Shown here: in pieces, positions 5,483 to 23,519 of the stretch
Layout: each line of letters starts with the position of its first letter
How positions within the stretch are numbered: position 1 is the first letter of the stretch
Assembly (NCBI GenBank): GCA_026388445.1
Contig: JAPLJU010000247.1
Coordinates: forward strand, 1-34,359
DNA length: 34,359 nt
Reading direction: 5' to 3'
From: Deltaproteobacteria bacterium
Lineage (GTDB): Bacteria > Desulfobacterota > Syntrophia > Syntrophales > UBA2192
Program-made: the position numbers and the translations under genes
The notes under the pieces: generated by a model
Seen by the model: only the letters and a program-made list of their open reading frames with translations
What the model was told of the DNA's origin: nothing
Database searches by the model: none

Positions 5483-7234
5483 TCAGGGCACCATCCTAAA
5501 AAGGAAAAGGGCCCTGAAAACAGACCAGACGGTGGCCACGAGTCCGGCTAAAACATAGTTTGTTTCCAGAAACCCGTTCAGCACGGCGGCGGAAAACGCC
5601 GCTTTTCTATCACAAAGCTCGAAACAAATCCACATGTAAAACACGCAGGCCAGCAGCACGAAACTCACCGTGGAGGTCCATCCCAGGGGAAAGGCCACAG
5701 CCAGCAGCAGGAACAGAAAAAGAGAAAGCCCCTCCATGAGCCGTCTCGTCCGTTCCTCTCCGATGACGACCGGAATCGTCTCACGACCCATGAGCCGGTC
5801 ACTCTGGATGTCCATGAGATCCGAAAGGGCGGACCGGACGAAGACAACAGTGAAGGTGAAAAGAAAAGCAACCATCATGGACGGCTTGACGACGATATCG
5901 ACATCCACCTGGGGAACAACGGCCACAACGACGGCCCATGCCACGGCCATGAAAGAGTTCTTTGTGCCGGGCAGGTCTTTCAGCTTCCGGAAGCGCCAGC
6001 TTTTCGGGAAAATCCTCGTATTGTAGAGGGCGCCCACGATCGAGATGAAGGACAGAACAAGGAAAGGCTCAAGACCGATCAGATAAGCCGACAGGAGAGA
6101 GATGAACATGCAGAAAATGGCCACGACGGTGAAGGCCTTCTCATGCCTCAGATAGGACTCTTCCCGAAAGGACCCTTTGAACGGGGTGGATTCCCGGTCG
6201 ATGAGGCGGTTGAGCGTATGCACGGAAAATACATAGGCGGAGGCCATGAGAACGGCGAGAGGGTTCAGGGATTCCCTCTGAAGGAAAGCCGAAGCGACGG
6301 CGAGGCAGCCAGCCCCCAGGGCCGAATAGATATCCGTTCTCACCGTCAGAAGCCAGAAATTGATCAGGCGCTGTTTCAGCGTCCTTCTCTTTTGACTCAG
6401 CCTGCCGGTGATGTGGTCGACAACACGCTCGATGATCCAGTTGGGGGTCGAGGCGCCGGCGGAAATCCCGATCCGCTCGTACGCATCGATGGAGATCCTG
6501 TCCAGTTCCTCAGCCGTCTCAATGTGGAAGGTGGGGATGCCCTTCGCCGTTGAAATTCGTGCGAGCCTGCGGGTGTTGGCGCTGTTTTTTCCTCCGACGA
6601 TGAAGATGGCGTCCATCTCGGAGGCTAGATTCCTGATCTCCGACTGTCTCTCCTCCGTGGAGTCGCAGATGGTATCGAAGACCACCACGTCCGGAAACCG
6701 TGCCTGGACCTTTTTGATGATCTCGGCGTATTCCTCGGAACTCTGCGTCGTCTGGGCAACCACACAGACATGCTCCAGCGCGGGCAGGGCCTCCACGTCC
6801 TCCAGCCGTCCGATCACGATACCATGCCCGGAGCTGTACCCGAGAAGGCCGTCCACCTCCGGGTGCTCCCTGTCACCCACGATGAGCACGGCATAGCCCC
6901 TGGCGGCGTGCTTCTTGATGATAGCCTGGACGCGGCCCACCCGGGGGCAGGTGGCATCGATGATTTTCAGACCCTTGTCCTGCAGGACCTTTCGTTCCTG
7001 CGGCGAGATCCCGTGGGCGCGGATGATGATGGTGCCTTCTTCAACGTCGCTCAAATCGGTGACGGGGATGATCCCCCGCTTCTTCAAGAGCTCCACCGTC
7101 TGCGGGTTATGAATCAGGGGACCGTAAGTGTATATCTTTTCTTCCCCCTTGTGCTGGGCGATATCGAGCACCATATCGACGGCCCTTTTCACGCCCATGC
7201 AGAAACCCGCTGTCCTGGCCAGCTTAATCTCCAT
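5483..7234 (-). CDS. ispH: IspH (HMBPP reductase) fused to a C-terminal UbiA-like polytopic membrane domain
   Basis: Residues 1-~280 are a complete IspH with three cluster cysteines (FC12MGV, ATC96P, TIC190DS). Residues ~290-583 are hydrophobic helices with a UbiA-type second Asp motif, DLMDIQSDRLMGRETIP. It is one uninterrupted ORF. Confidence 0.85.
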   Translation of the reverse strand: MEIKLARTAGFCMGVKRAVDMVLDIAQHKGEEKIYTYGPLIHNPQTVELLKKRGIIPVTDLSDVEEGTIIIRAHGISPQERKVLQDKGLKIIDATCPRVGRVQAIIKKHAARGYAVLIVGDREHPEVDGLLGYSSGHGIVIGRLEDVEALPALEHVCVVAQTTQSSEEYAEIIKKVQARFPDVVVFDTICDSTEERQSEIRNLASEMDAIFIVGGKNSANTRRLARISTAKGIPTFHIETAEELDRISIDAYERIGISAGASTPNWIIERVVDHITGRLSQKRRTLKQRLINFWLLTVRTDIYSALGAGCLAVASAFLQRESLNPLAVLMASAYVFSVHTLNRLIDRESTPFKGSFREESYLRHEKAFTVVAIFCMFISLLSAYLIGLEPFLVLSFISIVGALYNTRIFPKSWRFRKLKDLPGTKNSFMAVAWAVVVAVVPQVDVDIVVKPSMMVAFLFTFTVVFVRSALSDLMDIQSDRLMGRETIPVVIGEERTRRLMEGLSLFLFLLLAVAFPLGWTSTVSFVLLACVFYMWICFELCDRKAAFSAAVLNGFLETNYVLAGLVATVWSVFRALFLFRMVP

Positions 7235-11041: not shown

Positions 11042-12382
11042 TCACTCCCTGTCGATACGAATAACCCTGGCATCGAAGCTCCCCGCTGAAACCTTGACGC
11101 CCACCTCGTCCCCCACCGAAAGGGCCGAGGCCTCTTTGATGATCAGACCCTCCGGACGCTTGCGGGTGATGCTGTAGCCCCGCTTCAGTATGGCAAGGGG
11201 ACTCAGCGAATCCAGGATACCCGTATGCGTCTCGAGCCTGCTTCTGAAATAATCCATCGTTCGGAAAAGTCCAGTTAGCATGTTTTTTTTCATATTTTCA
11301 ATAAGAAACCGCGAGTTTCTGATGCCGGCCAGGGGTGTCAGGGCCATCAGGTGGCGGAGCTCGGCCGCAACACGCGATCTTTTTTCCACAGCCCCGCGTC
11401 GGATGGCCGCCGTGAGTTTCTCGTAAGAATCGTCCACGGAAATGCGGAGCTCGACGATCTTTCTCCGGGGATCCCGGAGACGCTCCCTCAGGGACTCCAC
11501 CTGCTCAGCAAGGTTTTCCCTCATCTTGCGGTGAAGGACTTCCAGGCGAAGGCAAAACCGCTTCAGGGACTCCCGCAGTTCATTTCTCACCGGGACAGCC
11601 AGCTCGGCCGCGGCGGAGGGTGTGGGTGCACGAAGGTCGGCCACAAAATCGGCAATGGTAAAGTCAATCTCATGACCCACCGCCGAGATGACAGGTATCC
11701 GCGATTCGAAGATGGCCCGGGCGACCCTTTCATCGTTGAAGGGGGCGAGGTCCTCCAGTGACCCGCCGCCACGGGCCACGATGATGACCCCCACGTCCGG
11801 CAGGGTGTTCAGGTTTGCCAGGGCTTCCACGATCTCCGGGGGGGCCTCAGCCCCCTGGACACGCACGGGCGCGATGACGATGCCCACGGAGGGAAAACGT
11901 CTCCCGGTGATGTTGAGAATGTCGCGAATAGCGGCACCGCTGGGGGAGGTGATGACGCCGATCTTTTTGGGGAGAAAGGGGATTGGTTTCTTGCGTGCAG
12001 GATCGAAAAGCCCTTCCTTCTCCAGGCGCGCCTTCAGCTGCTCGAAGGCGATCTGGAGGGCCCCGATGCCTTTTGGTTCGGCCACCTCGATGATGATCTG
12101 ATACTCACCCCGGGGTTTGTAGACGCCGAGCCTCGCCCTGCAGATGATGTGCATGCCGTCCTGGATTTCGAATCTCATGGCCCGGTAGACGGGACGGAAG
12201 ATGACAGCCCTGATCTGGGCCTGTTCATCCTTGAGGGTGAAGTACAGATGTCCTGAAGCAGGTTTTCTGAGATTTGAGATTTCCCCTTCGACCCAGAGGG
12301 AATCAAAGCTTGACTCGAGAACGAACTGGATTCGTTCCGTCAGTTCCCGGACGGTCAGGATTTCCTTCATTCGATGCGGCAA
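11042..12382 (-). CDS. xseA: Exodeoxyribonuclease VII large subunit
   Basis: 446 aa with an N-terminal OB fold (LWVEGEISNLRKPASGHLYFTLKD), GVITSPSGAAIRDIL and ARGGGSLEDL. Confidence 0.9.
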   Translation of the reverse strand: MPHRMKEILTVRELTERIQFVLESSFDSLWVEGEISNLRKPASGHLYFTLKDEQAQIRAVIFRPVYRAMRFEIQDGMHIICRARLGVYKPRGEYQIIIEVAEPKGIGALQIAFEQLKARLEKEGLFDPARKKPIPFLPKKIGVITSPSGAAIRDILNITGRRFPSVGIVIAPVRVQGAEAPPEIVEALANLNTLPDVGVIIVARGGGSLEDLAPFNDERVARAIFESRIPVISAVGHEIDFTIADFVADLRAPTPSAAAELAVPVRNELRESLKRFCLRLEVLHRKMRENLAEQVESLRERLRDPRRKIVELRISVDDSYEKLTAAIRRGAVEKRSRVAAELRHLMALTPLAGIRNSRFLIENMKKNMLTGLFRTMDYFRSRLETHTGILDSLSPLAILKRGYSITRKRPEGLIIKEASALSVGDEVGVKVSAGSFDARVIRIDRE

Positions 12383-12796
12383 CCTCTTGTGGATCTAAGG
12401 CTCCTTGCGGTGTCTGTGACCGGCCGGACCCTCGATCCATCAGGGACTATCTAACAGAGCCGTCAGTGGGTTGCAAGAACTTTGTATCTCCCCGTTTCGG
12501 CTCAGGAAAAGCTTTGGCCAGGGATTTCATTTTGGCATCTGAGCGCTCATAGGTTAAAAAGGGCACCGTTCACGCTGGATGCTGGAGGAAGAGGAATAAA
12601 TGGGGGTTCGCAAGGCTATTTGATTGAACCGGCAGACCCCACCGCTAAACTCCTTTCCTAATACCCCGGTCTTAAAAAAATACGACTAAAAATACGACTA
12701 TCTACCGATTGATTTGCCAACTTATTTGTGCGAAATGAAACCCAAGAAACATTTGCAGTTGATAAATTATATATGGCTTCTAAGATATTTAAATAT

Positions 12797-13186
12797 ATGG
12801 ATAATTCAGCCAACAAAAAAGGTTTCACCCTGATAGAGATTGTCTCAGTTCTTGCGATCTTAGGTATCATTGCGGCCATTGCCGTGCCGAGATACTTCGA
12901 TCTCATCGAGGATTCAAGACTCAAAGCAGTCCAATCTGCGCTTGCCGAAGGGCGCGCCCGTGTGACGTCATGGGGGAGCCTGCAATACCTGCATAACGGG
13001 ATATGGCCGACTGTTGATGAATATATTGAGGCCGTCGATACCATCGGGAGGGACGGGGGAGATTTCCGTTTTTCCTACACGAGGGTTGACGAAAACACCC
13101 TCAAAATAAAGGCCGAGGGGAGGGAAGGAACGACCCTCCACGACTTCGAGCAGTCCGTTCGCGTGGTCATCCCCGGAAGCAGTTAA
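12797..13186 (+). CDS. Type IV pilin-like protein, copy 1 (prepilin N-methylation motif)
   Basis: MDNSANKKG|FTLIEIVSVLAILGIIAAIAVPRYF shows a class III signal peptide with G-1/F+1/E+5. The start is set at ATG 12797 to give a normal short leader. The globular part has no Cys. Confidence 0.8.
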   Translation: MDNSANKKGFTLIEIVSVLAILGIIAAIAVPRYFDLIEDSRLKAVQSALAEGRARVTSWGSLQYLHNGIWPTVDEYIEAVDTIGRDGGDFRFSYTRVDENTLKIKAEGREGTTLHDFEQSVRVVIPGSS

Positions 13187-13358
13187 GGGGAGAGAAGAAA
13201 CTCCCGGATGAGAGCGAAAAGAAGAAGGCTCTTTACATCATAAAAGAACTCCGTGTCTCGATCGAGTGCGGGGTTTTTACCTTTCATACCGGCCTATTAT
13301 GAATGGTTAAAGGGGGTCGGTATAAGAAGACAGCGAAAAAGGGCCATGCACATAAAAA

Positions 13359-13390
13359 GGGGCAGGCTGCATAGCAGTCTGCCCCTTTTT
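13359..13390 (+). terminator. Rho-independent terminator, probably bidirectional
   Basis: GGGGCAGGCTGC-ATA-GCAGTCTGCCCC forms a 12-bp stem with one G.U pair. TTTTT follows it and AAAAA precedes it. Confidence 0.75.
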
Positions 13391-13410
13391 ATGCCGTGAT
13401 GTGGGAAAAA

Positions 13411-13435
13411 TGGTGGAGATGAGGGGGATCGAACC
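13411..13435 (-). other. Orphan 3' fragment of a tRNA-Ala gene (acceptor/T-arm, att-like)
   Basis: TGGTGGAGATGAGGGGGATCGAACC matches 24 of the first 25 nt of the full tRNA gene at 23444-23468. Similarity stops abruptly after GAACC. Confidence 0.7.
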
Positions 13436-13753
13436 TATTTTGAACGCCAGTGATCTCATCCGTCGCAGGCTCGGCCACCCCGCGGCCTCGCACTGCTCCT
13501 GGTGCCGCTCCCTCCTGAACGTCGGTCGCGGGAAGGTGTGGCCCTGGCCCGGGCCATGACTGAACGTCATGGCCTGCGGGCGGTTCTGAAGATTTATTTT
13601 ATATGCGCCGCCGCCCCATTCGTTTTGAACTGAAATAATAAGGTACCCTCAGCCCTACCTTTTATAATACCACATGTCGGCGCGCGCAGGCAGGCGAAAA
13701 CCGAAGGTTGAGCCACGAGCACGCCGACGAAGCTGACCCACCCAGACCAGGTT

Positions 13754-14986
13754 TCATGGTTTCTGCGGTTCCTTCCAGAGACGGACTATAAATTGCTCCC
13801 CGTCCTCTATGAATTCGGGTTCAGTTCCGTTGTGATCGAGCATCCCACGGATGATTTTGCGGGGAACACCCATGCCCATATGTTCCATGTAGCCGTAATC
13901 ACGCATCACGTCCTTAATGAGCTGGTTCCTGGCCGCACGACAGCCAGTACGCATCCGTGCGGGCGTGATACCGTTCGGCAATCTTCCAGGAGAGATCACT
14001 TCGAGGCGGTTCTCGTAAAGGCTCAATTCGATATCGGTTGCCGAGAGTGAGTAGTCACGGTGGGCCAGCGCATTCACGACGGTCTCACGAATCACTTCCA
14101 AGGGATAGTCCTTCCATCGCTCTTGACGCCGGCCGGTTTCGTCAAGATGTGCCTCGACTGTCGTATTGCGGCGTACAAAGTCGATTGCCTGCTCGACAAG
14201 ACCGTTCTCAACAATTTCCCCCTGTCTATTATAGAGCGGTATGATTGGGCCTCGGAGGGGACTGCGTTCCTTGGCTGCGTAGTCCTTCTCCAATCCCGGG
14301 TGGGCGACAGCATCCATCCCAGCGTGCGGAAGAAAACGGTTTGGGTTGCGCCCGAATAAGAGAAGACCTGCGACTGTAGCCGGAGAGTTACCGCCGTCTT
14401 CTGTCATGATCTCCGTGTTGACAAGGAGCATACGCCAGCCCACCTCGTCTTCATCCGGTGGAACCTCCTGCTGCCGTACACGCGCAAAGTAATCCCGTAA
14501 TCGCCTCCGGTCGAGGTCCACCATGGAAGACCCAGAGACCGGTCGGACTTCCAGACGAAATCCACCTCGCTGCTGGAACAAACGCTCCAGTTCTTCCTGG
14601 CTCGGCTCACGGCTCAGCGTCCCGACGCGGATGTACCACATTCGGTGGTTGTCGTGCCAGACATGGTGCGCAGTCCACCCGCGCTCCACCTGGACAACAG
14701 CGACATTTTTGCCCGGCGCGACATCACGATGGATTTCAAAGTAAGGGATCAATTCTGGCCGGATCTTATCTCTGCACGCTGTCATGATCCATTCTTCTAA
14801 GTTATCCCGAGTGATGCCGCAGATGGTTCCGTCGTTCTCGACTCCGAGCAGCACGCGCCCCCCCTGCAAGTTGGCAAAGGCCACCAGTTCCTTCGCGAGA
14901 GCGCGGTTATCAATAGTGTCCCGCTTGAACTCCACGCCGGAATTCTCGCCATTTCGAATAAGTTCGATCAGTTCCGTCTTCGTCAT
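13754..14986 (-). CDS. AlbA_2 (Schlafen-like) DNA-binding domain protein with a C-terminal HATPase_c_4/wHTH-like region
   Basis: The N-terminus MTKTELIELIRNGENSGVEFKRDTIDNRALAKELVAFANLQGGRVLLGVENDG is the typical AlbA_2 signature. The C-terminal part (VVNALAHRDYS...IELSLYENRLEVISPGRLP) resembles the ATPase-like module usually fused to it. The start lies 9 nt after the upstream gene's stop. Confidence 0.75.
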   Translation of the reverse strand: MTKTELIELIRNGENSGVEFKRDTIDNRALAKELVAFANLQGGRVLLGVENDGTICGITRDNLEEWIMTACRDKIRPELIPYFEIHRDVAPGKNVAVVQVERGWTAHHVWHDNHRMWYIRVGTLSREPSQEELERLFQQRGGFRLEVRPVSGSSMVDLDRRRLRDYFARVRQQEVPPDEDEVGWRMLLVNTEIMTEDGGNSPATVAGLLLFGRNPNRFLPHAGMDAVAHPGLEKDYAAKERSPLRGPIIPLYNRQGEIVENGLVEQAIDFVRRNTTVEAHLDETGRRQERWKDYPLEVIRETVVNALAHRDYSLSATDIELSLYENRLEVISPGRLPNGITPARMRTGCRAARNQLIKDVMRDYGYMEHMGMGVPRKIIRGMLDHNGTEPEFIEDGEQFIVRLWKEPQKP

Positions 14987-14995
14987 GAATGATCC

Positions 14996-17689
14996 TTAGA
15001 AGACATACTTCAGACGGCGCGTCTCGAATGCCTCCTTGCCGCCTTCGAGAACTTCTTCGACAAGCTCTCGCACTGGCCGAGCGTCAATCGACCCCATGTG
15101 TTCGGTCGGCATCTCAGCCTTTCCCTCGCCAGCTTCACCTGCTGCCCTAAGACCGACAATCAGTTCTGCATCGCCAAGGACAGGGATGTTCGCATTGTGC
15201 GTAGCGAATAGGAACTGACGACGGCGTTTCTCCTCGCGCATCTTGGGTACTACCCCTTCTGTGATGAAGCGGTTATCGAGGTCGTCTTCCGGCTGATCTA
15301 CCACGAGGGGCGCCTCGCCCTCGAGTAGGAGCAGCAACAACACCGCTGTTGCCTTCTGCCCCGTGGAGAGATCCGCCAGGGCCTGCCAGGCAATCGGCTG
15401 ACCCTCCCCGGCTATATTGAGCTCAATGCGAGTTGTCGGAGGAAGGTCCAATTCCTCCATCGCCATAAATGTTCCAGATGAAGCTTGAGCAAGGCGTTCA
15501 GCCTGAGCCGGTGGAATCGCGAAGTTTTGCGCGAGGGCATCACGCCCCGCACGACAGGCGTCGGCAAACTCCTTGAGTGATAACGAATCTCGCTTTTTGA
15601 GTGCATCAACAGCTTCACCGAGACGCCCGCCAACTTGCTCCCGGAGGAGTTGGAACAGTGGTTCTCTGTTCCCCGCAGAGGTCACCTGAACTCGAACCCG
15701 GTCAGCGAGGGCCTTGTTCACCTTTTTCGCCGCCCGATCAAGCTGCCGATACGCTGCGGTCTTAAGATCTTCCCACTCGGCCAGGAAGTTACGGCGCTGG
15801 TCTTCGAGTTCCTTCAGGTCACGCTGAAGCGTCCCCTGCCTCTCCTTGAGCGGACGGAGCTCCTCAATCTGATGCCGGAGCCGTATAAACTCTTCGCCGT
15901 CGATCTTAGATTTCTGAAGTTCTCGGAGAATCTTTTCATAGGCGGCTTGAACACCCTTCTTCCGGTCATCCCATCGCTGGCGGACTATGGCAAGTCCCTT
16001 ATCAGCTTCCTCAAGAGCCTTAGCCATTTGATTAATAGCAACCCCAATATCCCGATCAAGCCGCTCGAGAACTGTATCCGCCTCTGTAAGGATCTCTTTT
16101 CCTGGCAACCCTTCCAGCGCCTTCACCGATAAAAACGCACGATCGATCGGTATGGCCCGGCGAAGCTGGTCTAGGATCTCGCGGAAGGGAGTAGCACGCT
16201 CTCCTGCCGTGCGTAGGATTCTCTCTTCACGGACTAAGAGACTCTGTTCCTTGAGTTTCTTCTCAAGGCCCGCTTCTTGAAAGCGCTTGAGAGTTTCCTC
16301 CAGGGCGGGGAGGGATGCCAAACGCTCATCAATCTGGCGTAACTCCTTCTTTACCTCAAGAATACGGACTCGGGATCGTTCTAGTTCTCGCGTAAGATCA
16401 ATCTTGCGCTGTGATAGGCTGGGATCGTGGTCCACGAAACGCTCTAGAAGGCGTGTAAGCTTCTCGGGGCTCTTCGTAAGTTCTGAGATTTCGTGCTGCC
16501 CGTACACCTGGGCCTGCGGAAAGATGTCCGCTGGAGTTAGGGTAATCACTTTCCCGGTGTTATCCCTCACCACCGGTGGATTGGGAACCGTTCTTTCAAT
16601 CAGATACTCGCGCTTTGCCGGCCTGTGAGAACGGACAAGAAGGGAAACCTTTGTGCCACTGCGAAGGACCTGCCGGATAATCCCCTCGTGGGCCTTGCGA
16701 GCCTCCTCACCGAGTGGCTCCAAACCCAACACATACCGCACGCTCTCGACCACTGTTGATTTGCCTGTGCCCCGCCCGCCGATGAGGACGTTCAGGTTTT
16801 CATTGAAGTGGATGGCGCCCCCATCGAGAAACCCACTTTGCCAGGCCATGGCAACAAACTCGGTATGATCCTCTGGTGCCGGGGCATTTGCAAGTCGGAT
16901 GCGGGAGACAGGATCGAGGAAGGCCTGACGTAGACCCTCGACGGTGACTTCGGACATTTTGATCCAACAGGTCGCCGATGGGTCCGATAGCTCCTCTGGT
17001 TGCGTAACGTCCTTCGCGTTCACGACAGCCATAGCAAGATTCGGGGCGGCAGTAGGAACCCGTTTGTACTCCGGGTTCTGATTGCGCAAAATGGGTCGTT
17101 TGTCGTCCGGCACATCATCAATAGCCCCTGGAATTTGAACGGCCAACAGATTCTTGTCTTTCCATGCATTTATCCTGGACTGACCGTGAAGAACGCTAAG
17201 AAGGCCTTTCTCTTGCGTGACGTGTGCTGCGATGGTCACACCTCCCTGTTCCCTCACGCAGGACAGAATCTCAGCGATTGATTTGTTCGAAAGTTTAGCG
17301 GAGGGGTCCACGTCACGAATACCGAACTCTCCAAGGTAGCGGCCCAATGTGTCTGTCAACGTGTCAGGCGGATAAATACACAAAATGTGCACACCTTCGG
17401 ATGAGGAAATTTCGAATCCAGGGAACACATAGATGTCATTTTTCTGCGCCTCATCGCGGATATGATCGATCGAGCCAGCATGGTTGTGGTCTGTGATAGC
17501 AATGACGCGAATGTCCAACTCGATGCACTTTGCGACAAGGCCGCTAAGGTAGTCACTTTCATTCATGCCATGGTTCCGTCCGCGGTAAGTTCTTGCGTAA
17601 TGAGAGGGATTTACCTGAAGAGCACACTTATAAAAACATGCGCCACCTGGCAGCATCAGCACTTTGGAAATTGGTTCAGGCCAGTTCAT
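14996..17689 (-). CDS. PHP-domain phosphoesterase fused to a Rad50/SMC-like coiled-coil ABC ATPase
   Basis: PHP motifs AITDHNH, GFEISSSEGVHIL and TIAAHV in residues ~20-260. Walker A is LIGGRGTGKST (K310). A ~400-aa charged helical region follows. Signature-like LSTGQKATAVLLLLLL, Walker B PLVVDQPEDDLD and H-loop FATHNANIP complete the ATPase. AGGAGG lies 6 nt upstream of ATG 17689. Confidence 0.8.
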   Translation of the reverse strand: MNWPEPISKVLMLPGGACFYKCALQVNPSHYARTYRGRNHGMNESDYLSGLVAKCIELDIRVIAITDHNHAGSIDHIRDEAQKNDIYVFPGFEISSSEGVHILCIYPPDTLTDTLGRYLGEFGIRDVDPSAKLSNKSIAEILSCVREQGGVTIAAHVTQEKGLLSVLHGQSRINAWKDKNLLAVQIPGAIDDVPDDKRPILRNQNPEYKRVPTAAPNLAMAVVNAKDVTQPEELSDPSATCWIKMSEVTVEGLRQAFLDPVSRIRLANAPAPEDHTEFVAMAWQSGFLDGGAIHFNENLNVLIGGRGTGKSTVVESVRYVLGLEPLGEEARKAHEGIIRQVLRSGTKVSLLVRSHRPAKREYLIERTVPNPPVVRDNTGKVITLTPADIFPQAQVYGQHEISELTKSPEKLTRLLERFVDHDPSLSQRKIDLTRELERSRVRILEVKKELRQIDERLASLPALEETLKRFQEAGLEKKLKEQSLLVREERILRTAGERATPFREILDQLRRAIPIDRAFLSVKALEGLPGKEILTEADTVLERLDRDIGVAINQMAKALEEADKGLAIVRQRWDDRKKGVQAAYEKILRELQKSKIDGEEFIRLRHQIEELRPLKERQGTLQRDLKELEDQRRNFLAEWEDLKTAAYRQLDRAAKKVNKALADRVRVQVTSAGNREPLFQLLREQVGGRLGEAVDALKKRDSLSLKEFADACRAGRDALAQNFAIPPAQAERLAQASSGTFMAMEELDLPPTTRIELNIAGEGQPIAWQALADLSTGQKATAVLLLLLLEGEAPLVVDQPEDDLDNRFITEGVVPKMREEKRRRQFLFATHNANIPVLGDAELIVGLRAAGEAGEGKAEMPTEHMGSIDARPVRELVEEVLEGGKEAFETRRLKYVF

Positions 17690-17791
17690 AACCGACCTCC
17701 TTCCTGAAACATTGCTCCAACCTGGGTGTGGTGGAACTCGATCTTCACAGTGGGCAAGTACAAATCATTCATTAGAATACACCTCTAAAAA

Positions 17792-19279
17792 CTAAATCGT
17801 TTCAAGAAGATCTTTATCTTCCTCTCCCGGTTCGATGATACCTTCGACAGCCAGAGAGATCTGCTTGGCTTTGTTCCTGAGAGCCACCCGACCCAGCACG
17901 GTCTCCTGCGTTTCCCTGGTTATCCGCTCTCGGAGATCTTTGTCTTTTGGAATGGGCAATATGACTTCGAAAATGCGCTTGCCCAGAGTATCAATCACAT
18001 CGCGAGTGAATTGCTTGGCACGCATCTGCCGCTTGACAATGGGACAGTTCAACAGAGATAACAAAAGATAGGGATCAAGCTGGTCTTTCTTCTTCACCCG
18101 TATTTTGTAGAGTCCACCACAATACAGAATGCGGGTATCATGCTCAGTCAGAATGCACGATGTTCCGACCAAGTAGGTGCCGTCGCGTACGACAAACAAG
18201 TCCTCGGCGCGCACGTCCAACTTGTCTTTAAACTCATCGTAGAGGTCTTCGCTGACGCTCTGCTTTGGATCAGCTTTGAGTTCCCAGTTGGAGAGGTCGG
18301 AGGTACGGATGAACGGCACTGGACCCGTCCCGTAGGCCATCTTGCCGACCTCGATGCCTGTATCAAATGCAAGCACGCCTTTCTTGACGAGGTCACTGAT
18401 CGAAATGAGATCATGGGTGGTAGCCAAGCCACGAAGTCCCTCATCCGCTACTGGATCGTAATACCGAGGAATGAAGATATTATATCGGACCTTGCCATAC
18501 CGGATGACAAAACCGGGGTTCCCGCTCAGCTCGAATTGGTCGTTATCTATGTCTGGGAGCTCTGCCGAAACGTTTTGTATGAGTCCCTGCGACCAGAGAG
18601 GTATCCGCCGTAACCGCTCTCGTAGAGCCACGCGATCGTGAACGACAGCCAAGACCGACCTTTCTATTTTTGAGCGAATTTCGGAATGTCTTGGAAGTGG
18701 CAGAATAAGTTCATGGTAACGGTTTCCGATCGTGTCAATAATATCTGCCGTGAACTGCTTGGCTCGAATCTGCCTACGTACTATCGGGGCACTTAGAAGT
18801 GCCAGGAGTAACGGGCTAGAGACCGGCGCATCGGCCGCGACTCTGAATTTCAGAATATGAGACTGATACAAGATTTTGGAGTCGGCCTCGGTTACGAGAC
18901 AGGTTGCACCTATGAGGTAGGTGCCGTCACGAACGAAGAGCAGGTCTCCACGCTGCACATCTTGCTTTGAAGCGTACTGCTCATATATGGTCTCGCTTAC
19001 ACCCTGTTTAGGATCAGCTTTGATCTCCCAATTCGAAATGTCGGACGTTCGAATGAACGGGATTGGCCCCGTGCCATAGGCCATTTTGCCTATTTCGTCA
19101 CCGGTGGCAGTCTGGATATGACCCCGGTGAATGAGTTCTCCGAGAAGTACTGGCTCATGGGTATGTCTGAGGTTGTCAAGATGGGTCTTAATCTCTGGGT
19201 TGTAGTATTTGGGGATAAGAACAGACCCACGAACCGCTGAGCTTTTTAAGAGAAACCCAAGGTGATTGTACACTGTCAT
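17792..19279 (-). CDS. hsdS: Type I R-M specificity (HsdS-like) subunit with two closely related target-recognition halves
   Basis: 495 aa with an internal duplication (GKMAYGTGPIPFIRTSDISNWEIKADPKQ / GKMAYGTGPVPFIRTSDLSNWELKADPKQ). HsdS-like GDLLFVRDGTYLIG / EDLFVVRDGTYLVG motifs and helical spacers are present. The start overlaps the methylase stop as ATGA. Confidence 0.7.
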   Translation of the reverse strand: MTVYNHLGFLLKSSAVRGSVLIPKYYNPEIKTHLDNLRHTHEPVLLGELIHRGHIQTATGDEIGKMAYGTGPIPFIRTSDISNWEIKADPKQGVSETIYEQYASKQDVQRGDLLFVRDGTYLIGATCLVTEADSKILYQSHILKFRVAADAPVSSPLLLALLSAPIVRRQIRAKQFTADIIDTIGNRYHELILPLPRHSEIRSKIERSVLAVVHDRVALRERLRRIPLWSQGLIQNVSAELPDIDNDQFELSGNPGFVIRYGKVRYNIFIPRYYDPVADEGLRGLATTHDLISISDLVKKGVLAFDTGIEVGKMAYGTGPVPFIRTSDLSNWELKADPKQSVSEDLYDEFKDKLDVRAEDLFVVRDGTYLVGTSCILTEHDTRILYCGGLYKIRVKKKDQLDPYLLLSLLNCPIVKRQMRAKQFTRDVIDTLGKRIFEVILPIPKDKDLRERITRETQETVLGRVALRNKAKQISLAVEGIIEPGEEDKDLLETI

Positions 19280-21123
19280 TTGCCACCCTTAACAATTTCC
19301 TTAAACCGCTCGGCAACCTTTGGTACATCATCGAGAAGGACTTCAACCCCCGAAGAATCCTTTCGAATTGTGGGGTTGCCGCGAGAATCGTGACCGCACC
19401 ACTTAACATCTGCCATAAAGATCACGTAGGCCTCACCTTCCTTCGGGACTGTCTTCTCAATAAAGACCACGCAAACTTTGGCATGGGTGCCGCCCTTACC
19501 ACTGGTCTTAAATAAAGCTTCAGGCATCGAGACAATGCCAAGAATTTTGGTCCGCTCGCGGAGAAACGTCACGACATATTCGTACGTGGGCATTCCAAAC
19601 ACAGCCTCGGGCAAGACAATCCCGAGACGTCCGCCAGGCTCAAGAAATTGCAGGCAACGTTCTAGGAAGAGGATTTGAGGCGGCTGGTCCTCGTGGAGCG
19701 TGTTTGTCTTTTCAACCTTGCCAGTCTTCTTGTCCTTTTTCCATTTGTATCCCAGTTCGTACTGCGCCAGCACGCGCTCCCCCTTGATCGGAATTTTCGT
19801 TCCGAAGGGAGGATTGGTTAGCACTACATTGAAAGAACCGATCTCGATGGTGTCTCGTGTAGCATGGTGCCAGTCCTTAGGAGGAAGCAGGCTATTCTCA
19901 CAGAAGACCCCGCCACGACCGTCACCGATGATCGCCATGTAGGCTTTGGTAACCTTTGCCAGAAAAGAGTCTTTGTCAATGCCTCGAAAACACTTACTCG
20001 CAATATCGCGCTTCTTCCGATCGAGCTGCACAGCGCTCCAAGCCTTCGCCTTGGACTGGACCTCCATTTTCTTCCAGACGTGCTCCAGTGCCATGATCAG
20101 GAAGCCACCGGAACCGCACGCGGGGTCAAGGATCATACCTCCCGGCTCTGGGTCTAAGATATCGATCATCATCTTGACGACGTTTCGGGGAGTAAAGAAC
20201 TGGCCCTCCCCACCGCGAAGGGCGGGGCCGATAAAGACCTCAAACGCATCACCGACCGCGTCCCGGGGCGCTTCCGTAATGCAATAGTTCTCTAGCTCGC
20301 CAACAACGTATACGAGGCTCTCGGCGTCTATCGTGATGGCGTCGGTCTTATCGAAGACATCGTTGAAATCCCCCTTTACCTTGTCATCAAAGAGGGCCAG
20401 TATCCGCTTCCTGACCTCACGTGGTGGCTCGTCAATCCCGGAACGGAAAGTGACGACATCATCGGCTCCGGTATTGATCTCGTCATAAATCTTACAGAAG
20501 AGGAGATTGATAATCTGTTGGGCCAAGGCCTCGTCGCGCGTGATGCCCGTGACGTTGCCGGCGAGGTGGTTACGAAGATCACGGAAGACGGCCTTTAGGT
20601 CTGAAGGAACTTTAAGGTCTTTCCTCTTGAAAAGGCCGATGTCCTCGATACGCTGGCCGTGGCGTGGTATGCTGGGAAGATCTTGGTAGGTGCGCCGCCC
20701 ATCCTTGTGGTAGACCTTTCTTAGATATGCGTGCTCAAGACCGTTGAACCAGACCCCAATCTCTGCTGCTGACATGTCCAGGTAGAGTTTGAGCTGCGCA
20801 AGGCCATCCTTGCGGTTTTTCTTTTTGCACTCAACAACCATGAACAGATCATCTTCGACCCGGCGGCTGTTTTTGAAAACGGCAATATCCACGGGGTAAG
20901 ATTTTTCCTCGTCCGATGGGCGCTTGCGGACACGGTATTGGGGCCGAGTCTGAATATGCGATTTCGGGTAGTCATAATCTTCAATCAGGCGTCGTGAAAA
21001 AATCTGGACAGCGTCGAGCTCTTCGGGGCTAGCCTTTACCCAGTGACCGGAGACAAAGTCCCGGATCTGCCCTTCTCGCTTTTCGGTCTCTTCCGCCTTC
21101 TCGAATTTCTTGACCATGGTCAC
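19276..21123 (-). CDS. hsdM: N6-adenine DNA methyltransferase (HsdM-like, gamma class) with an N-terminal HsdR_N/PD-(D/E)xK-like domain
   Basis: SAM motif ILDPACGSGGFL and catalytic VLTNPPFG. N-terminal ~140 aa carry YPVD79IAVF...FMVVE98CK100. The start is GTG 21123 (GTGA overlap with the radC stop) or ATG 21117. Confidence 0.85.
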   Translation of the reverse strand: MTMVKKFEKAEETEKREGQIRDFVSGHWVKASPEELDAVQIFSRRLIEDYDYPKSHIQTRPQYRVRKRPSDEEKSYPVDIAVFKNSRRVEDDLFMVVECKKKNRKDGLAQLKLYLDMSAAEIGVWFNGLEHAYLRKVYHKDGRRTYQDLPSIPRHGQRIEDIGLFKRKDLKVPSDLKAVFRDLRNHLAGNVTGITRDEALAQQIINLLFCKIYDEINTGADDVVTFRSGIDEPPREVRKRILALFDDKVKGDFNDVFDKTDAITIDAESLVYVVGELENYCITEAPRDAVGDAFEVFIGPALRGGEGQFFTPRNVVKMMIDILDPEPGGMILDPACGSGGFLIMALEHVWKKMEVQSKAKAWSAVQLDRKKRDIASKCFRGIDKDSFLAKVTKAYMAIIGDGRGGVFCENSLLPPKDWHHATRDTIEIGSFNVVLTNPPFGTKIPIKGERVLAQYELGYKWKKDKKTGKVEKTNTLHEDQPPQILFLERCLQFLEPGGRLGIVLPEAVFGMPTYEYVVTFLRERTKILGIVSMPEALFKTSGKGGTHAKVCVVFIEKTVPKEGEAYVIFMADVKWCGHDSRGNPTIRKDSSGVEVLLDDVPKVAERFKEIVKGGK

Positions 21124-21872
21124 GAAGTGTCCCTCGAATCAAAGTCCTTATCGTATTGTTCGATTATCCCGGTGTCAGCGAAGCTGAACTTCTCATTATC
21201 TCCAATAATGATGTGGTCATGAACCTTCATGCCCATGAGCCGGCATGCAAAAACAAGATCCCGCGTAATCTTTTTGTCATCCTCGCTGGGCTGTGCGGCT
21301 CCGGATGGATGATTGTGAACAAACACGAGCGCAGCGGCGGAATGTCGAAGGGCAACCTTGACCACCTCTCGCGGATAAATTCGAGCGGTCGTCAGCGTTC
21401 CCTTTGCGATTTCCTCGATTCTCAAGACATGGTTTTGCCCATTCAGGAGAAGGACCTTGAAGGCCTCTTGGTCCAAGTCGCGCATTTCTTGATAGAGAAG
21501 CTTAAGAATATCGCCCGAAGACTCCACATAGGGACGATTCTGAAACCCTTCAGCAAGGTAACGTTTGCTCAACTCGATCACTGCCTTAAATTGAGCGATC
21601 TTGGCCCGACCTACACCGAGCACACTTTCCAATTCCTCTAGGGGTGCTACGTAGAGTTCTCGTAAAGAGCCAAATCGAGAAAGAAGCTCCTGAGCCAAGC
21701 CAATGGCAGTCTTACCCTTTACACCTACTCGAAGAAAGATAGCGAGAAGTTCAGCGTTCGAAAGGGATTCCGGTCCCTTAAGAAGTAATTTCTCCCGTGG
21801 GCGTTCTTCAACAGGCCAGTTTGCTATGGCTTGAGGATATTTCTTTCTCCTTATGTTTTCAGATAGGCTCAT
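21120..21872 (-). CDS. radC: RadC-like JAB/MPN domain protein
   Basis: ERPREKLLLKGPESLSNAELLAIFLRVG (HhH region) and the JAMM motif FVHNHPSGAAQPSEDD. ATG 21872 overlaps the upstream stop as ATGA. The track start at 21911 is less likely. Confidence 0.85.
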   Translation of the reverse strand: MSLSENIRRKKYPQAIANWPVEERPREKLLLKGPESLSNAELLAIFLRVGVKGKTAIGLAQELLSRFGSLRELYVAPLEELESVLGVGRAKIAQFKAVIELSKRYLAEGFQNRPYVESSGDILKLLYQEMRDLDQEAFKVLLLNGQNHVLRIEEIAKGTLTTARIYPREVVKVALRHSAAALVFVHNHPSGAAQPSEDDKKITRDLVFACRLMGMKVHDHIIIGDNEKFSFADTGIIEQYDKDFDSRDTS

Positions 21873-22060
21873 CTTTTCGCTTGCTTCCGTGGTCGTTGGG
21901 CCTTTGCCCATTCTTCAACCTCTTCCCTGTTAAACCGCCATTGGTTGCCGATCTTCGACACAGGGATTTTCCCTTGTTGCGCCCACTTGTAGATAAGGTC
22001 CTTGCTGATCTGAAGGTATGCAGCAACCTCTTTTACCTTCATCCACCTGTTTTCCAACAC
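21869..22060 (-). CDS. Excisionase/MerR-type helix-turn-helix DNA-binding protein
   Basis: MKVKEVAAYLQISKDLIYKWAQQGKIPVSKIGNQWRFNREEVEEWA matches the excisionase-family HTH pattern. GTG 22060 has GGGAGG 4 nt upstream. ATG 22042 is an alternative start. Confidence 0.75.
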   Translation of the reverse strand: MLENRWMKVKEVAAYLQISKDLIYKWAQQGKIPVSKIGNQWRFNREEVEEWAKAQRPRKQAKR

Positions 22061-22103
22061 CAGTCCTCCCAGATTTCCAGGGATTCAGAAGAATTCAAGT
22101 GAG

Positions 22104-22132
22104 ATCATAATGAATCCTGCATAAGATGTCAA
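22104..22132 (-). promoter_or_regulatory. Near-consensus sigma70 promoter for the island operon
   Basis: On the minus strand: TTGACA (22132-22127), a 17-nt spacer, then TATGAT (22109-22104). It lies ~44 nt upstream of the HTH start. A 7-bp inverted repeat, GGATTCA (22081-22087) / TGAATCC (22111-22117), brackets the -10 and TSS region. Confidence 0.6.
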
Positions 22133-22233
22133 ATGTTTTGTCATCGAAGGGGGCGATAGGAGAGGTCCATTGATTTTATTTCAGGGGGAGGGGGAGTCCC
22201 CCAAGCCTGGGGGACGGAAGCTGTGCTGGCGGA

Positions 22234-22536
22234 GTGAACGGCGGAGGCGTGCCCAAGAACTTCGCCCAGGACACCGTCATCTGCGCGGAGATCCTCGGAA
22301 TCGATGCTCCCATGCACAAATACGCCATCCAGATCACGGTGGCCGATGTCAGGGACGGGGCCTGCTCGAGTTCGACCTTGAAAGAGGCCTCCTCCTGGGG
22401 CAAGGTGGACAGCATTTACGAGCAGATGCTCTTTGCCGAGGCCACCTCGGTGTTGCCGCTCCTCGCAAGCCATGCCTGTCACGGCGGGCGCTGGAAGAAG
22501 AGGAAGAAATGGAGATTCGCAAAGCTTTTCGATTGA
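22234..22536 (+). pseudogene. 3' remnant (~100 codons) of a deoxyhypusine synthase-like gene
   Basis: GGGVPKNFAQDTVICAEILG...HKYAIQITVADVRDGACSSSTLKEASSWGKVD...LFAEATSVLPLL matches the C-terminal part of DHS-family proteins, which are normally >300 aa. The frame is closed just upstream. Confidence 0.65.
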
Positions 22537-22567
22537 TCCGGAGGACCGGGGAGATTTAATAAATGAT

Positions 22568-22603
22568 GGGGACAGGTTATTTATCAGCCTGTCTCCTTTT
22601 TTT
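22568..22603 (+). terminator. Rho-independent terminator behind the DHS remnant
   Basis: GGGGACAGG-N11-CCTGTCTCC forms a 9-bp stem with one G.U pair and is followed by TTTTTTT. Confidence 0.7.
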
Positions 22604-22824
22604 AACTGATATCTTTGTCGATTTGGAATCACAGGGACCGTCCTGTAAATCGGGCCTGATGATCACGCCTTCTCTGCGATATTCCTTTCGTAATACCCCG
22701 GTCATAACAAAATACGAATGAAAATACGACGATCTACCGATTGATTTTCCCACTTACATGTGCGAAATGAAACGCAAGAAACATATGCAGTTTATAAAAT
22801 ACGTATTACTAAATAATGAATTAA

Positions 22825-23443: not shown

Positions 23444-23519
<76 letters not shown>

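Follow-up and report, generated by a model that had tools for sequence, protein, structure and literature searches.

The 34,359-bp contig JAPLJU010000247.1 of a Deltaproteobacteria bacterium (Syntrophales, UBA2192; assembly GCA_026388445.1), which was analysed over its full length and is referred to here as the window, carries an array of six co-directional minus-strand open reading frames (ORFs) spanning positions 13754-22060. We consider it probable (roughly 0.72) that this array is a composite two-layer defence operon, in which two autonomous modules lie behind a common promoter and a common HTH_17 leader gene. Module A (22162-17792) encodes a helix-turn-helix (HTH) protein, a RadC-like protein, a putative restriction-modification (R-M) fusion protein, here named RM, and a specificity subunit (S), and would serve as a type IIB-like front line. 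Module B (17689-13754) encodes the pair TrlF-TrlG (TrlFG) and would provide an abortive-infection back-up. This reading is carried by the domain content of the six proteins, the conservation of catalytic residues, the separability of the two modules in relatives, and the recurrent embedding of TrlFG in methylation-based operons.

In the proposed mechanism an (RM)2S-like complex would methylate a bipartite host motif and cut unmodified DNA without an ATP-driven translocase. TrlF, a Ppl-like PHP nuclease combined with an ABC/SMC-type ATPase, would sense a cue such as DNA ends, nucleotide pools or failed restriction, and TrlG, a Schlafen tRNase-like protein, would arrest growth by RNA cleavage. 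An initial annotation of this DNA had proposed instead an undescribed system in which the PHP-ATPase stands in for HsdR as a methylation-sensitive effector. The locus is not a new restriction system of that kind: RM has a nuclease domain, deletions found in nature keep TrlF without RM-S, and TrlF-TrlG has been described as the Photorhabdus TRL operon, TrlG being a prokaryotic Schlafen (PMC7554251; 10.1101/2025.07.24.666596). Two features had been missed, namely the HSDR_N_2 domain at the methylase N-terminus and the identity of the last two genes as the named pair TrlF/TrlG.

The predicted restriction-modification module

The RM gene (19276-21123, minus strand) encodes an N6-adenine methyltransferase of 615 residues with Pfam matches to both HSDR_N_2 and N6_Mtase. 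HSDR_N_2 (PF13588, PD-(D/E)xK fold) is located at residues 40-153 (E 2e-13), ahead of N6_Mtase, and the order of the protein is a nuclease domain (about residues 20-170), a helical connector and a gamma-class N6-adenine methyltransferase with the motifs DPACGSGGF and NPPFG. The nuclease sequence reads P77-V-D79 ... V-V-E98-C-K100 ... Q110-L-K-L-Y114. The N-terminal 176 residues were searched against 1.8 billion cluster representatives, and conservation was scored on an alignment of 29 sequences, including 28 near-full-length relatives (at least 496 residues) that share 32-76% identity with the N-terminal domain of the window's protein. D79 is found in 29/29 of these sequences, and P77, E98, K100, Q110 and Y114 each in 28/29. 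In the type IIB enzyme BsaXI, cleavage depends on four residues of the corresponding N-terminal domain, E73, D90, E105 and K107 (PMC11997821).

The RM subunit of BsaXI is also the top PDB sequence match of RM (E 3e-26). The AlphaFold model, with a predicted local distance difference test score of about 90 in the nuclease domain, finds its best fold matches in three BsaXI entries (E 1e-17, 645-675 aligned columns), which rank above all type I M subunits. Assignment to the HsdM type found no support, as there was no HsdM_N match and TIGR00497 gave 19.5 bits against a cut-off of 242.75. Judging from its sequence, RM is a predicted R-M fusion with its own HsdR-type nuclease domain. Because this PD-(D/E)xK domain is conserved and RM resembles the BsaXI RM subunit over its full length, the nuclease is not missing from the locus, and the description "HsdR-less" holds for the translocase only. 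On that narrower point the initial annotation was right: no superfamily 2 (SF2) helicase or HsdR (ResIII, Helicase_C, HSDR-type helicase) was found in the 33 Pfam-scanned ORFs of the window, among which every gene-sized ORF is included, the largest having 897 residues.

The S gene (17792-19279, minus strand; 495 residues) was recognized by the PADLOC Specificity_I models, each of which matches S in two stretches. By its sequence S would be an HsdS-like subunit of two tandem halves, with two target recognition domains (TRDs). Aligned over 228 residues, which take in most of each predicted TRD, the halves show 49% identity, and because of this the two half-sites of the recognized motif may be related to each other rather than unrelated. 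The S gene contains a 122-nucleotide direct repeat (18232-18353 and 18976-19097). A nuclease-methyltransferase fusion together with a two-half S gives RM+S a predicted architecture of the BcgI/BsaXI type.

Compared with type I R-M systems, the locus has the two-TRD HsdS and lacks both HsdR and an HsdM-type methylase. The type IIB features of protein architecture, by contrast, are present, i.e. a nuclease and a gamma-class N6-adenine methyltransferase in one chain, and a separate two-TRD S whose gene overlaps the RM stop codon. BsaXI and BcgI share with RM and S the N-terminal PD-(D/E)xK domain, the helical connector, the gamma-class methyltransferase and the two-TRD HsdS-like subunit (PMC11997821). 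The differences are that BsaXI and RM are only about 20% identical, with lengths of 916 and 615 residues, that RM is without the BsaXI C-terminal knob, and that the RM gene, unlike those of type IIB enzymes, is always preceded by HTH_17 and RadC genes.

More than 7,800 matches make the RM family a very large one, and it has two forms of about 615 and about 860 residues. In a locus from Nitrospira (L002) the protein is a single 855-residue ORF in which M is joined to about 233 residues of S. Three relatives (L087, L088 and L095) carry a deletion corresponding to 18396-19321, which removes the last M codons up to the middle of S and leaves about 243 residues of S beside M; events of this type may be the origin of the forms of about 860 residues. 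On plasmids, more distant relatives occur by themselves, both as RM+S pairs and in fused form.

Two small genes precede RM. The first (21869-22060, minus strand) encodes a 63-residue HTH_17 protein (Pfam E 4.8e-19) that scores 77.7 bits against NCBIfam MAD1 (cut-off 80), and it is likely the regulator of the operon. In the window RadC, RM and S separate this leader gene from trlF; in three deletion variants described below (L091, L094 and L097) it lies directly upstream of trlF. Most other TrlF loci are without an HTH gene directly upstream. The possibility that the HTH protein is specific to TrlFG, as a general trlR-like regulator, was considered and rejected, as only 2/24 small upstream ORFs in 80 TrlF loci resemble real HTH genes. 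The second gene (21120-21872, minus strand) encodes a RadC-like JAB protein of 250 residues counted from the ATG at 21872 (Pfam RadC E 4e-42), with an NCBIfam score of 256.8 bits against a cut-off of 180 and an intact HNHPSG...SEDD motif.

TrlF and TrlG

The TrlF gene (14996-17689, minus strand) encodes a PHP/ABC-ATPase of 897 residues that scores 540.7 bits against NCBIfam NF045780 (TrlF family AAA-like ATPase, cut-off 350) over residues 16-895. It is composed of a PHP phosphoesterase (about residues 17-250), an ABC/SMC-type ATPase head and a coiled-coil insert of about 240 residues, with the ATPase motifs Walker A (GGRGTGKST, K310), signature (LSTGQK, 774-779) and Walker B (VVDQPED). The structural model shows a PHP domain similar to RNase AM and EndoQ, a long coiled coil, and a head similar to MukB, Smc and condensin. 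A search for a solved Ppl/TrlF structure returned a marginal SMC match with phmmer and only separate PHP-domain and SMC-head matches with Foldseek.

The kinship of this protein to Ppl, suspected in the initial annotation, is borne out by a PADLOC Ppl match (E 1e-42), though the score against NCBIfam Ppl (NF042955), 207 bits with a cut-off of 1000, rules out filing TrlF as Ppl. Ppl, a validated single-gene defence (Gao et al. 2020; PMC12904381), has the same combination of PHP phosphoesterase, ABC/SMC-like ATPase and coiled coil. The two differ in that Ppl acts alone, whereas TrlF, a sister family of Ppl, is almost always paired with a Schlafen gene.

TrlF is common on plasmids (335 records at a coverage of at least 80%), in some cases without TrlG. 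Solo TrlF genes were seen on Xanthomonas and Staphylococcus plasmids (L098 and L100), and TrlF without TrlG also occurs in a BREX-3 (bacteriophage exclusion) operon between PglXI and BrxHI (L030, 10001-12661). Given these solo occurrences, TrlF may be able to act by itself, like Ppl.

The TrlG gene (13754-14986, minus strand) encodes 410 residues with Pfam matches to SLFN_AlbA_2 (68.5 bits, cut-off 25.3) and, in the C-terminal region, to the histidine-kinase-like HATPase_c_4. The Ex4ExK catalytic motif is intact (E14-x4-E19-x-K21) and conserved, E14 being found in 66/66, E19 in 62/66 and K21 in 66/66 sequences. TrlG can be classified from its sequence as a predicted prokaryotic Schlafen. Divergent alleles take the place of the window's TrlG in cassettes with 96-98% identity elsewhere (window 13754-14806; L085 7293-8519; L087 12355-13189). 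In L085 the identity to the window is 97% as far as position 14806, beyond which its TrlG is only 66% identical at the protein level; the divergent TrlG has 463 residues versus 410, with the break point about 60 codons into trlG. Diversifying selection on a region that confers sensing or specificity would be expected to produce such an allele swap.

The names TrlF and TrlG come from Photorhabdus laumondii and its temperature restriction locus (TRL), trlR-trlF-trlG (Hapeshi et al. 2020, PMC7554251). At 36 °C this operon arrests growth; in temperature-tolerant clones, every suppressor mutation detected within the operon lay in trlG (PMC7554251). The two operons have in common a TrlF above the family cut-off, a TrlG with AlbA_2 and HATPase_c_4 domains downstream, and a small HTH gene in the lead. 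They differ in that RadC, the RM fusion and S lie here between the HTH gene and trlF, and in that the known phenotype of TRL is heat-induced growth arrest, not phage defence. On the Yersinia ruckeri plasmid pYR3, methyltransferase genes are located between trlR and trlF (PMC7554251).

Slfn-HisKinase(-HTH) proteins are the commonest class of prokaryotic Schlafens; anti-phage defence has been shown for Schlafens with other architectures, of which the one characterised in detail, an Ig-like fusion, cleaves tRNA (10.1101/2025.07.24.666596). According to a 2026 survey, at least 1,017 taxa have BREX and DUF499 loci in which Schlafen-HisK-wHTH genes are embedded, regarded there as "backup" effectors (PMC12839542). 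TrlG shares with this class the SLFN_AlbA_2 domain, the Ex4ExK motif and the HisK-like domain, and it also occurs within BREX and Hma operons; whereas the surveyed genes are embedded in BREX or DUF499/Hma loci, the host operon here is a type IIB-like RM-S module. The term "PHP" is absent from the text of both publications (PMC12839542; 10.1101/2025.07.24.666596), and a PHP-ATPase partner was not found there by term search.

Separability of the two modules in relatives

Each of the two modules is found without the other in relatives. Cassettes with HTH-RadC-RM-S and without TrlFG are present in four loci (L081-L084), with methyltransferases 80-92% identical to that of the window and nucleotide homology from about 22156 to 17794-17796, ending at the S stop codon. 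The RadC gene adjoins the RM gene in these loci and in L104, and RadC is a conserved member of the HTH-RadC-RM-S cassette. A second set of relatives consists of metagenome contigs with TrlF proteins 87-98% identical to that of the window, which display three arrangements. All six genes are present in L085, L086 and L089, while L092 is a truncated contig with M-S-TrlF. L087, L088 and L095 have the partial M-S deletion described above. In the third arrangement the HTH gene adjoins TrlF: in two contigs from different samples (L091 and L094) a deletion corresponding to 17869-21776 has removed most of the sequence from RadC to S, joining the HTH gene to TrlF. In L097 the deletion corresponds to 17841-21825 and has a different junction; most of the stretch from RadC to S is again lost, and the HTH leader is joined to TrlF. 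The L091/L094 and L097 deletions are two independent events. These contigs argue against an effector restrained by methylation, since the natural deletions drop the methylase yet keep TrlF.

The complete six-gene unit recurs in five loci (L002, L085, L086, L089 and L104) with TrlF identities of 72-98%, the lowest (72-73%) being those of L002 and L104. In L085-L089 the homology to the window ends at the ends of the unit and the flanking DNA is different. Because the unit recurs at 72-73% TrlF identity and its flanks differ, it is transferred as a whole and remains stable over time.

Neighbourhoods of TrlF-TrlG across genomes

Among the 185,579 species genomes scanned, 416 TrlF relatives were confirmed, and the best 80 loci were used for neighbourhood counts. 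TrlG lies immediately downstream of TrlF, at about 10-15 nucleotides, in about 77/80 loci, while the window's combination of HTH, RadC, M and S was found in only 1/80 (L002). Clustering and annotation of the neighbouring genes revealed components of Hma (DUF499 "BR"), i.e. the helicase HmaA, the DUF1156 methylase HmaB and HmaC, in 26 loci, BREX in three and type I R-M in three. A co-directional methylation-based system adjoins TrlF in 21/55 loci having at least 5 kb on both sides, in agreement with the link between the PHP-ATPase and DNA-methylation modules drawn in the initial annotation, and components of methylation systems are present on both sides of TrlFG in 15 loci. Examples of such embedding are HmaA-TrlF-TrlG-HmaB (L016), a complete type I R-M system around TrlFG (hsdM-hsdS-TrlF-TrlG-hsdR, L065) and BrxC-PglX-TrlF-TrlG-PglZ-BrxL (L101). 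TrlFG lies within BREX-1 in L014, L101 and L102 and within Hma in at least 15 loci, and TrlF lies within BREX-3 in L030. The IncC plasmid pCFR-0b27 reads, in its RefSeq annotation, hsdM-hsdS-TrlF-"RNA-binding domain protein"-hsdR. The absence of HsdR stands for the window; elsewhere, L065 and pCFR-0b27 keep hsdR in the operon with TrlF, close to what the initial annotation itself had named as speaking against its model. TrlF-TrlG is a conserved cassette that recurs in methylation-based defence operons. In L102 (1476-11946) two tandem TrlFG-like pairs lie between PglX and PglZ of a BREX-1 operon, each composed of an SMC-like ATPase (1008 and 898 residues) followed by a Schlafen-HisK protein.

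Operon layout, promoter and flanking genes

The six genes and their coordinates, overlaps, gaps and promoter agree with the initial annotation when recomputed from ORF coordinates and sequence, and its domain calls are supported by Pfam, PADLOC and NCBIfam, with the methylase motifs and the Walker A lysine in the translations. Start and stop codons overlap at 21869-21872 (ATGA), 21120-21123 (GTGA) and 19276-19279 (ATGA). TrlF and TrlG are separated by 9 nucleotides (14987-14995), and S and TrlF by the inter-module junction of 102 nucleotides (17690-17791), which carries a GGAGG ribosome-binding site before the TrlF ATG; no promoter-like or terminator-like site was found on its coding strand. 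A sigma-70-like promoter (TTGACA-17-TATGAT, 22104-22132, minus strand, 11/12 positions matching) is the top promoter match in the region, which holds eight promoter-like matches against 7.0 expected from shuffles, i.e. no excess. The homology blocks common with the independent cassettes L081-L083 and L085-L089 start at 22132-22162, just upstream of this promoter.

The island is bounded by xseA (11042-12382) and a tRNA-Ala gene (23444-23519), and no integrase was found between them. No terminal repeats surround the 8.4-kb cassette, the sole meaningful repeat being the internal one in hsdS. Within the interval from xseA to tRNA-Ala the cassette is flanked by minus-strand ORFs of 128 (12658-13044), 87 (13307-13570) and 163 (22141-22632) residues that have no Pfam, PADLOC or NCBIfam match. 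Elsewhere in the window, a plus-strand ORF of 649 residues (55-2004) has no Pfam match, and a minus-strand ORF of 583 residues (5483-7234) encodes an unusual fusion of LytB/IspH (residues 3-275) to a UbiA prenyltransferase domain (312-541), located in an isoprenoid gene cluster near dxs, ispA and xseA.

Alternative interpretations

Several points weigh against the reading of the locus as two autonomous modules. The variants deleted for RadC-RM-S are short metagenome contigs in which an intact downstream TrlG is not in view. A six-gene order kept down to 72% TrlF identity, together with the overlap of the RM-S and TrlF reading frames in L002, could be a sign that the modules work as one unit and do not simply lie side by side. 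Confidence in the modelled ATPase head of TrlF is low. The C-terminal paddle of BsaXI, required for cleavage, is absent from RM (PMC11997821). MAD2, a homologous methyltransferase of the methylation-associated defence system (MADS), needs several other MADS genes for defence (10.1101/2023.03.30.534895), so that an intact nuclease motif is no proof that RM+S restricts alone. The enzymatic activities of all six proteins, the trigger and co-transcription are inferred.

TrlFG may have a functional bond to methylation-based systems, serving them as guard or back-up, or may simply collect in their vicinity. That it is a dedicated guard of methylation-based immunity, and not a random island neighbour, is in our estimate a minority possibility and rather unlikely. 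It would accord with the position of TrlFG, which adjoins methyltransferase or specificity genes in at least four kinds of system that are unrelated to one another (type I, type IIB-like, BREX and Hma). As a guard, TrlFG would monitor failure, for example through DNA-mimic anti-restriction proteins or complexes stalled on unmodified DNA, and would respond by Schlafen-mediated RNA cleavage, with the PHP-ABC ATPase as sensor or licensing factor.

A reduced MADS-like complex, with the HTH protein as MAD1, RM as MAD2, S as MAD5 and TrlF in the role of MAD3, seems improbable. MADS comprises mad1-8 (Maestri et al. 2024; 10.1101/2023.03.30.534895) and has in common with the locus an HTH_17 leader, a MAD2-like methyltransferase with the same N-terminal domain, an S subunit and an ABC-type ATPase. 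The resemblance is visible in the scores, as the HTH protein falls just short of MAD1, RM matches NCBIfam MAD2 over its full length with 383.1 bits (cut-off 720), S matches MAD5 with 54 bits (cut-off 400) and the TrlF ATPase matches PADLOC mad3 (E 8e-10); deletion of mad5 is moreover lethal unless mad2 or mad3 is also deleted, implying that the activity of MAD2 and the ATPase is toxic (10.1101/2023.03.30.534895). Yet every MAD score lies below its equivalog cut-off, and the mad3 match, weaker than that to Ppl and no better than that to LmuB, reflects generic ABC-ATPase similarity. PADLOC gave no match to mad4 or mad6-8 in the ten scanned proteins of the island and its left flank, and MAD6, MAD7 and MAD8 are mandatory in the authors' MacSyFinder model of MADS (10.1101/2023.03.30.534895). 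The locus differs further by the presence of RadC and by an ATPase that is a TrlF/Ppl-type PHP fusion, and HTH-RadC-RM-S stands alone without an ATPase in relatives. With these mad genes missing from the ten scanned proteins and the scores low, the locus was rejected as MADS itself; the RM module is a relative of the MADS methylation module and not a MADS system.

Equally improbable is that M+S is an orphan or epigenetic methyltransferase with a vestigial nuclease, which would leave TrlFG as the sole active defence module. Cleavage by RM+S is a prediction, the lack of the paddle fits such a loss of function, and annotation pipelines name the relatives plain "N-6 DNA methylase". On the other hand, the nuclease residues and the QxxxY motif are near-invariant in distant relatives, indicating selection on catalysis, RM-S has been lost more than once in close relatives, as is typical for restriction genes that carry a cost, and reshuffling of S is typical of restriction systems under diversifying selection.

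The least probable alternative is the model of the initial annotation, with M+S marking self and TrlF (with TrlG) replacing HsdR in one undescribed system, for although six tightly spaced genes behind one promoter, the lack of an SF2 HsdR in the window, the recurrence of the six-gene unit in five loci and the frame overlap in L002 are in its favour, RM has its own conserved nuclease domain, each module occurs alone at high identity, the natural M-S deletions that keep TrlF would be autoimmune, TrlFG co-occurs with intact HsdR, PglZ/BrxL and HmaA effectors, and TrlG carries an RNase-like and not a DNA-restriction domain.

Significance

The combination of RM-S with TrlFG, and the partnership of TrlF with HisK-type Schlafens, were not found in the literature searched. 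Taken alone, the locus is an ordinary modular assembly of a defence island, from which it follows in practice that the N-terminus of the methylase should be inspected before the nuclease of an "HsdR-less M+S pair" is concluded to be missing. The wider pattern is that operons of the type I, type IIB-like, BREX and Hma kinds repeatedly contain a conserved pair of a Ppl-like PHP-ATPase and a Schlafen, and that this TrlF-TrlG pair can come and go as a whole. The pattern offers a testable candidate for the way in which HisKinase-fusion Schlafen effectors, the commonest class in bacteria, are controlled, and it is relevant to the question why back-up effectors cluster near systems based on methylation.

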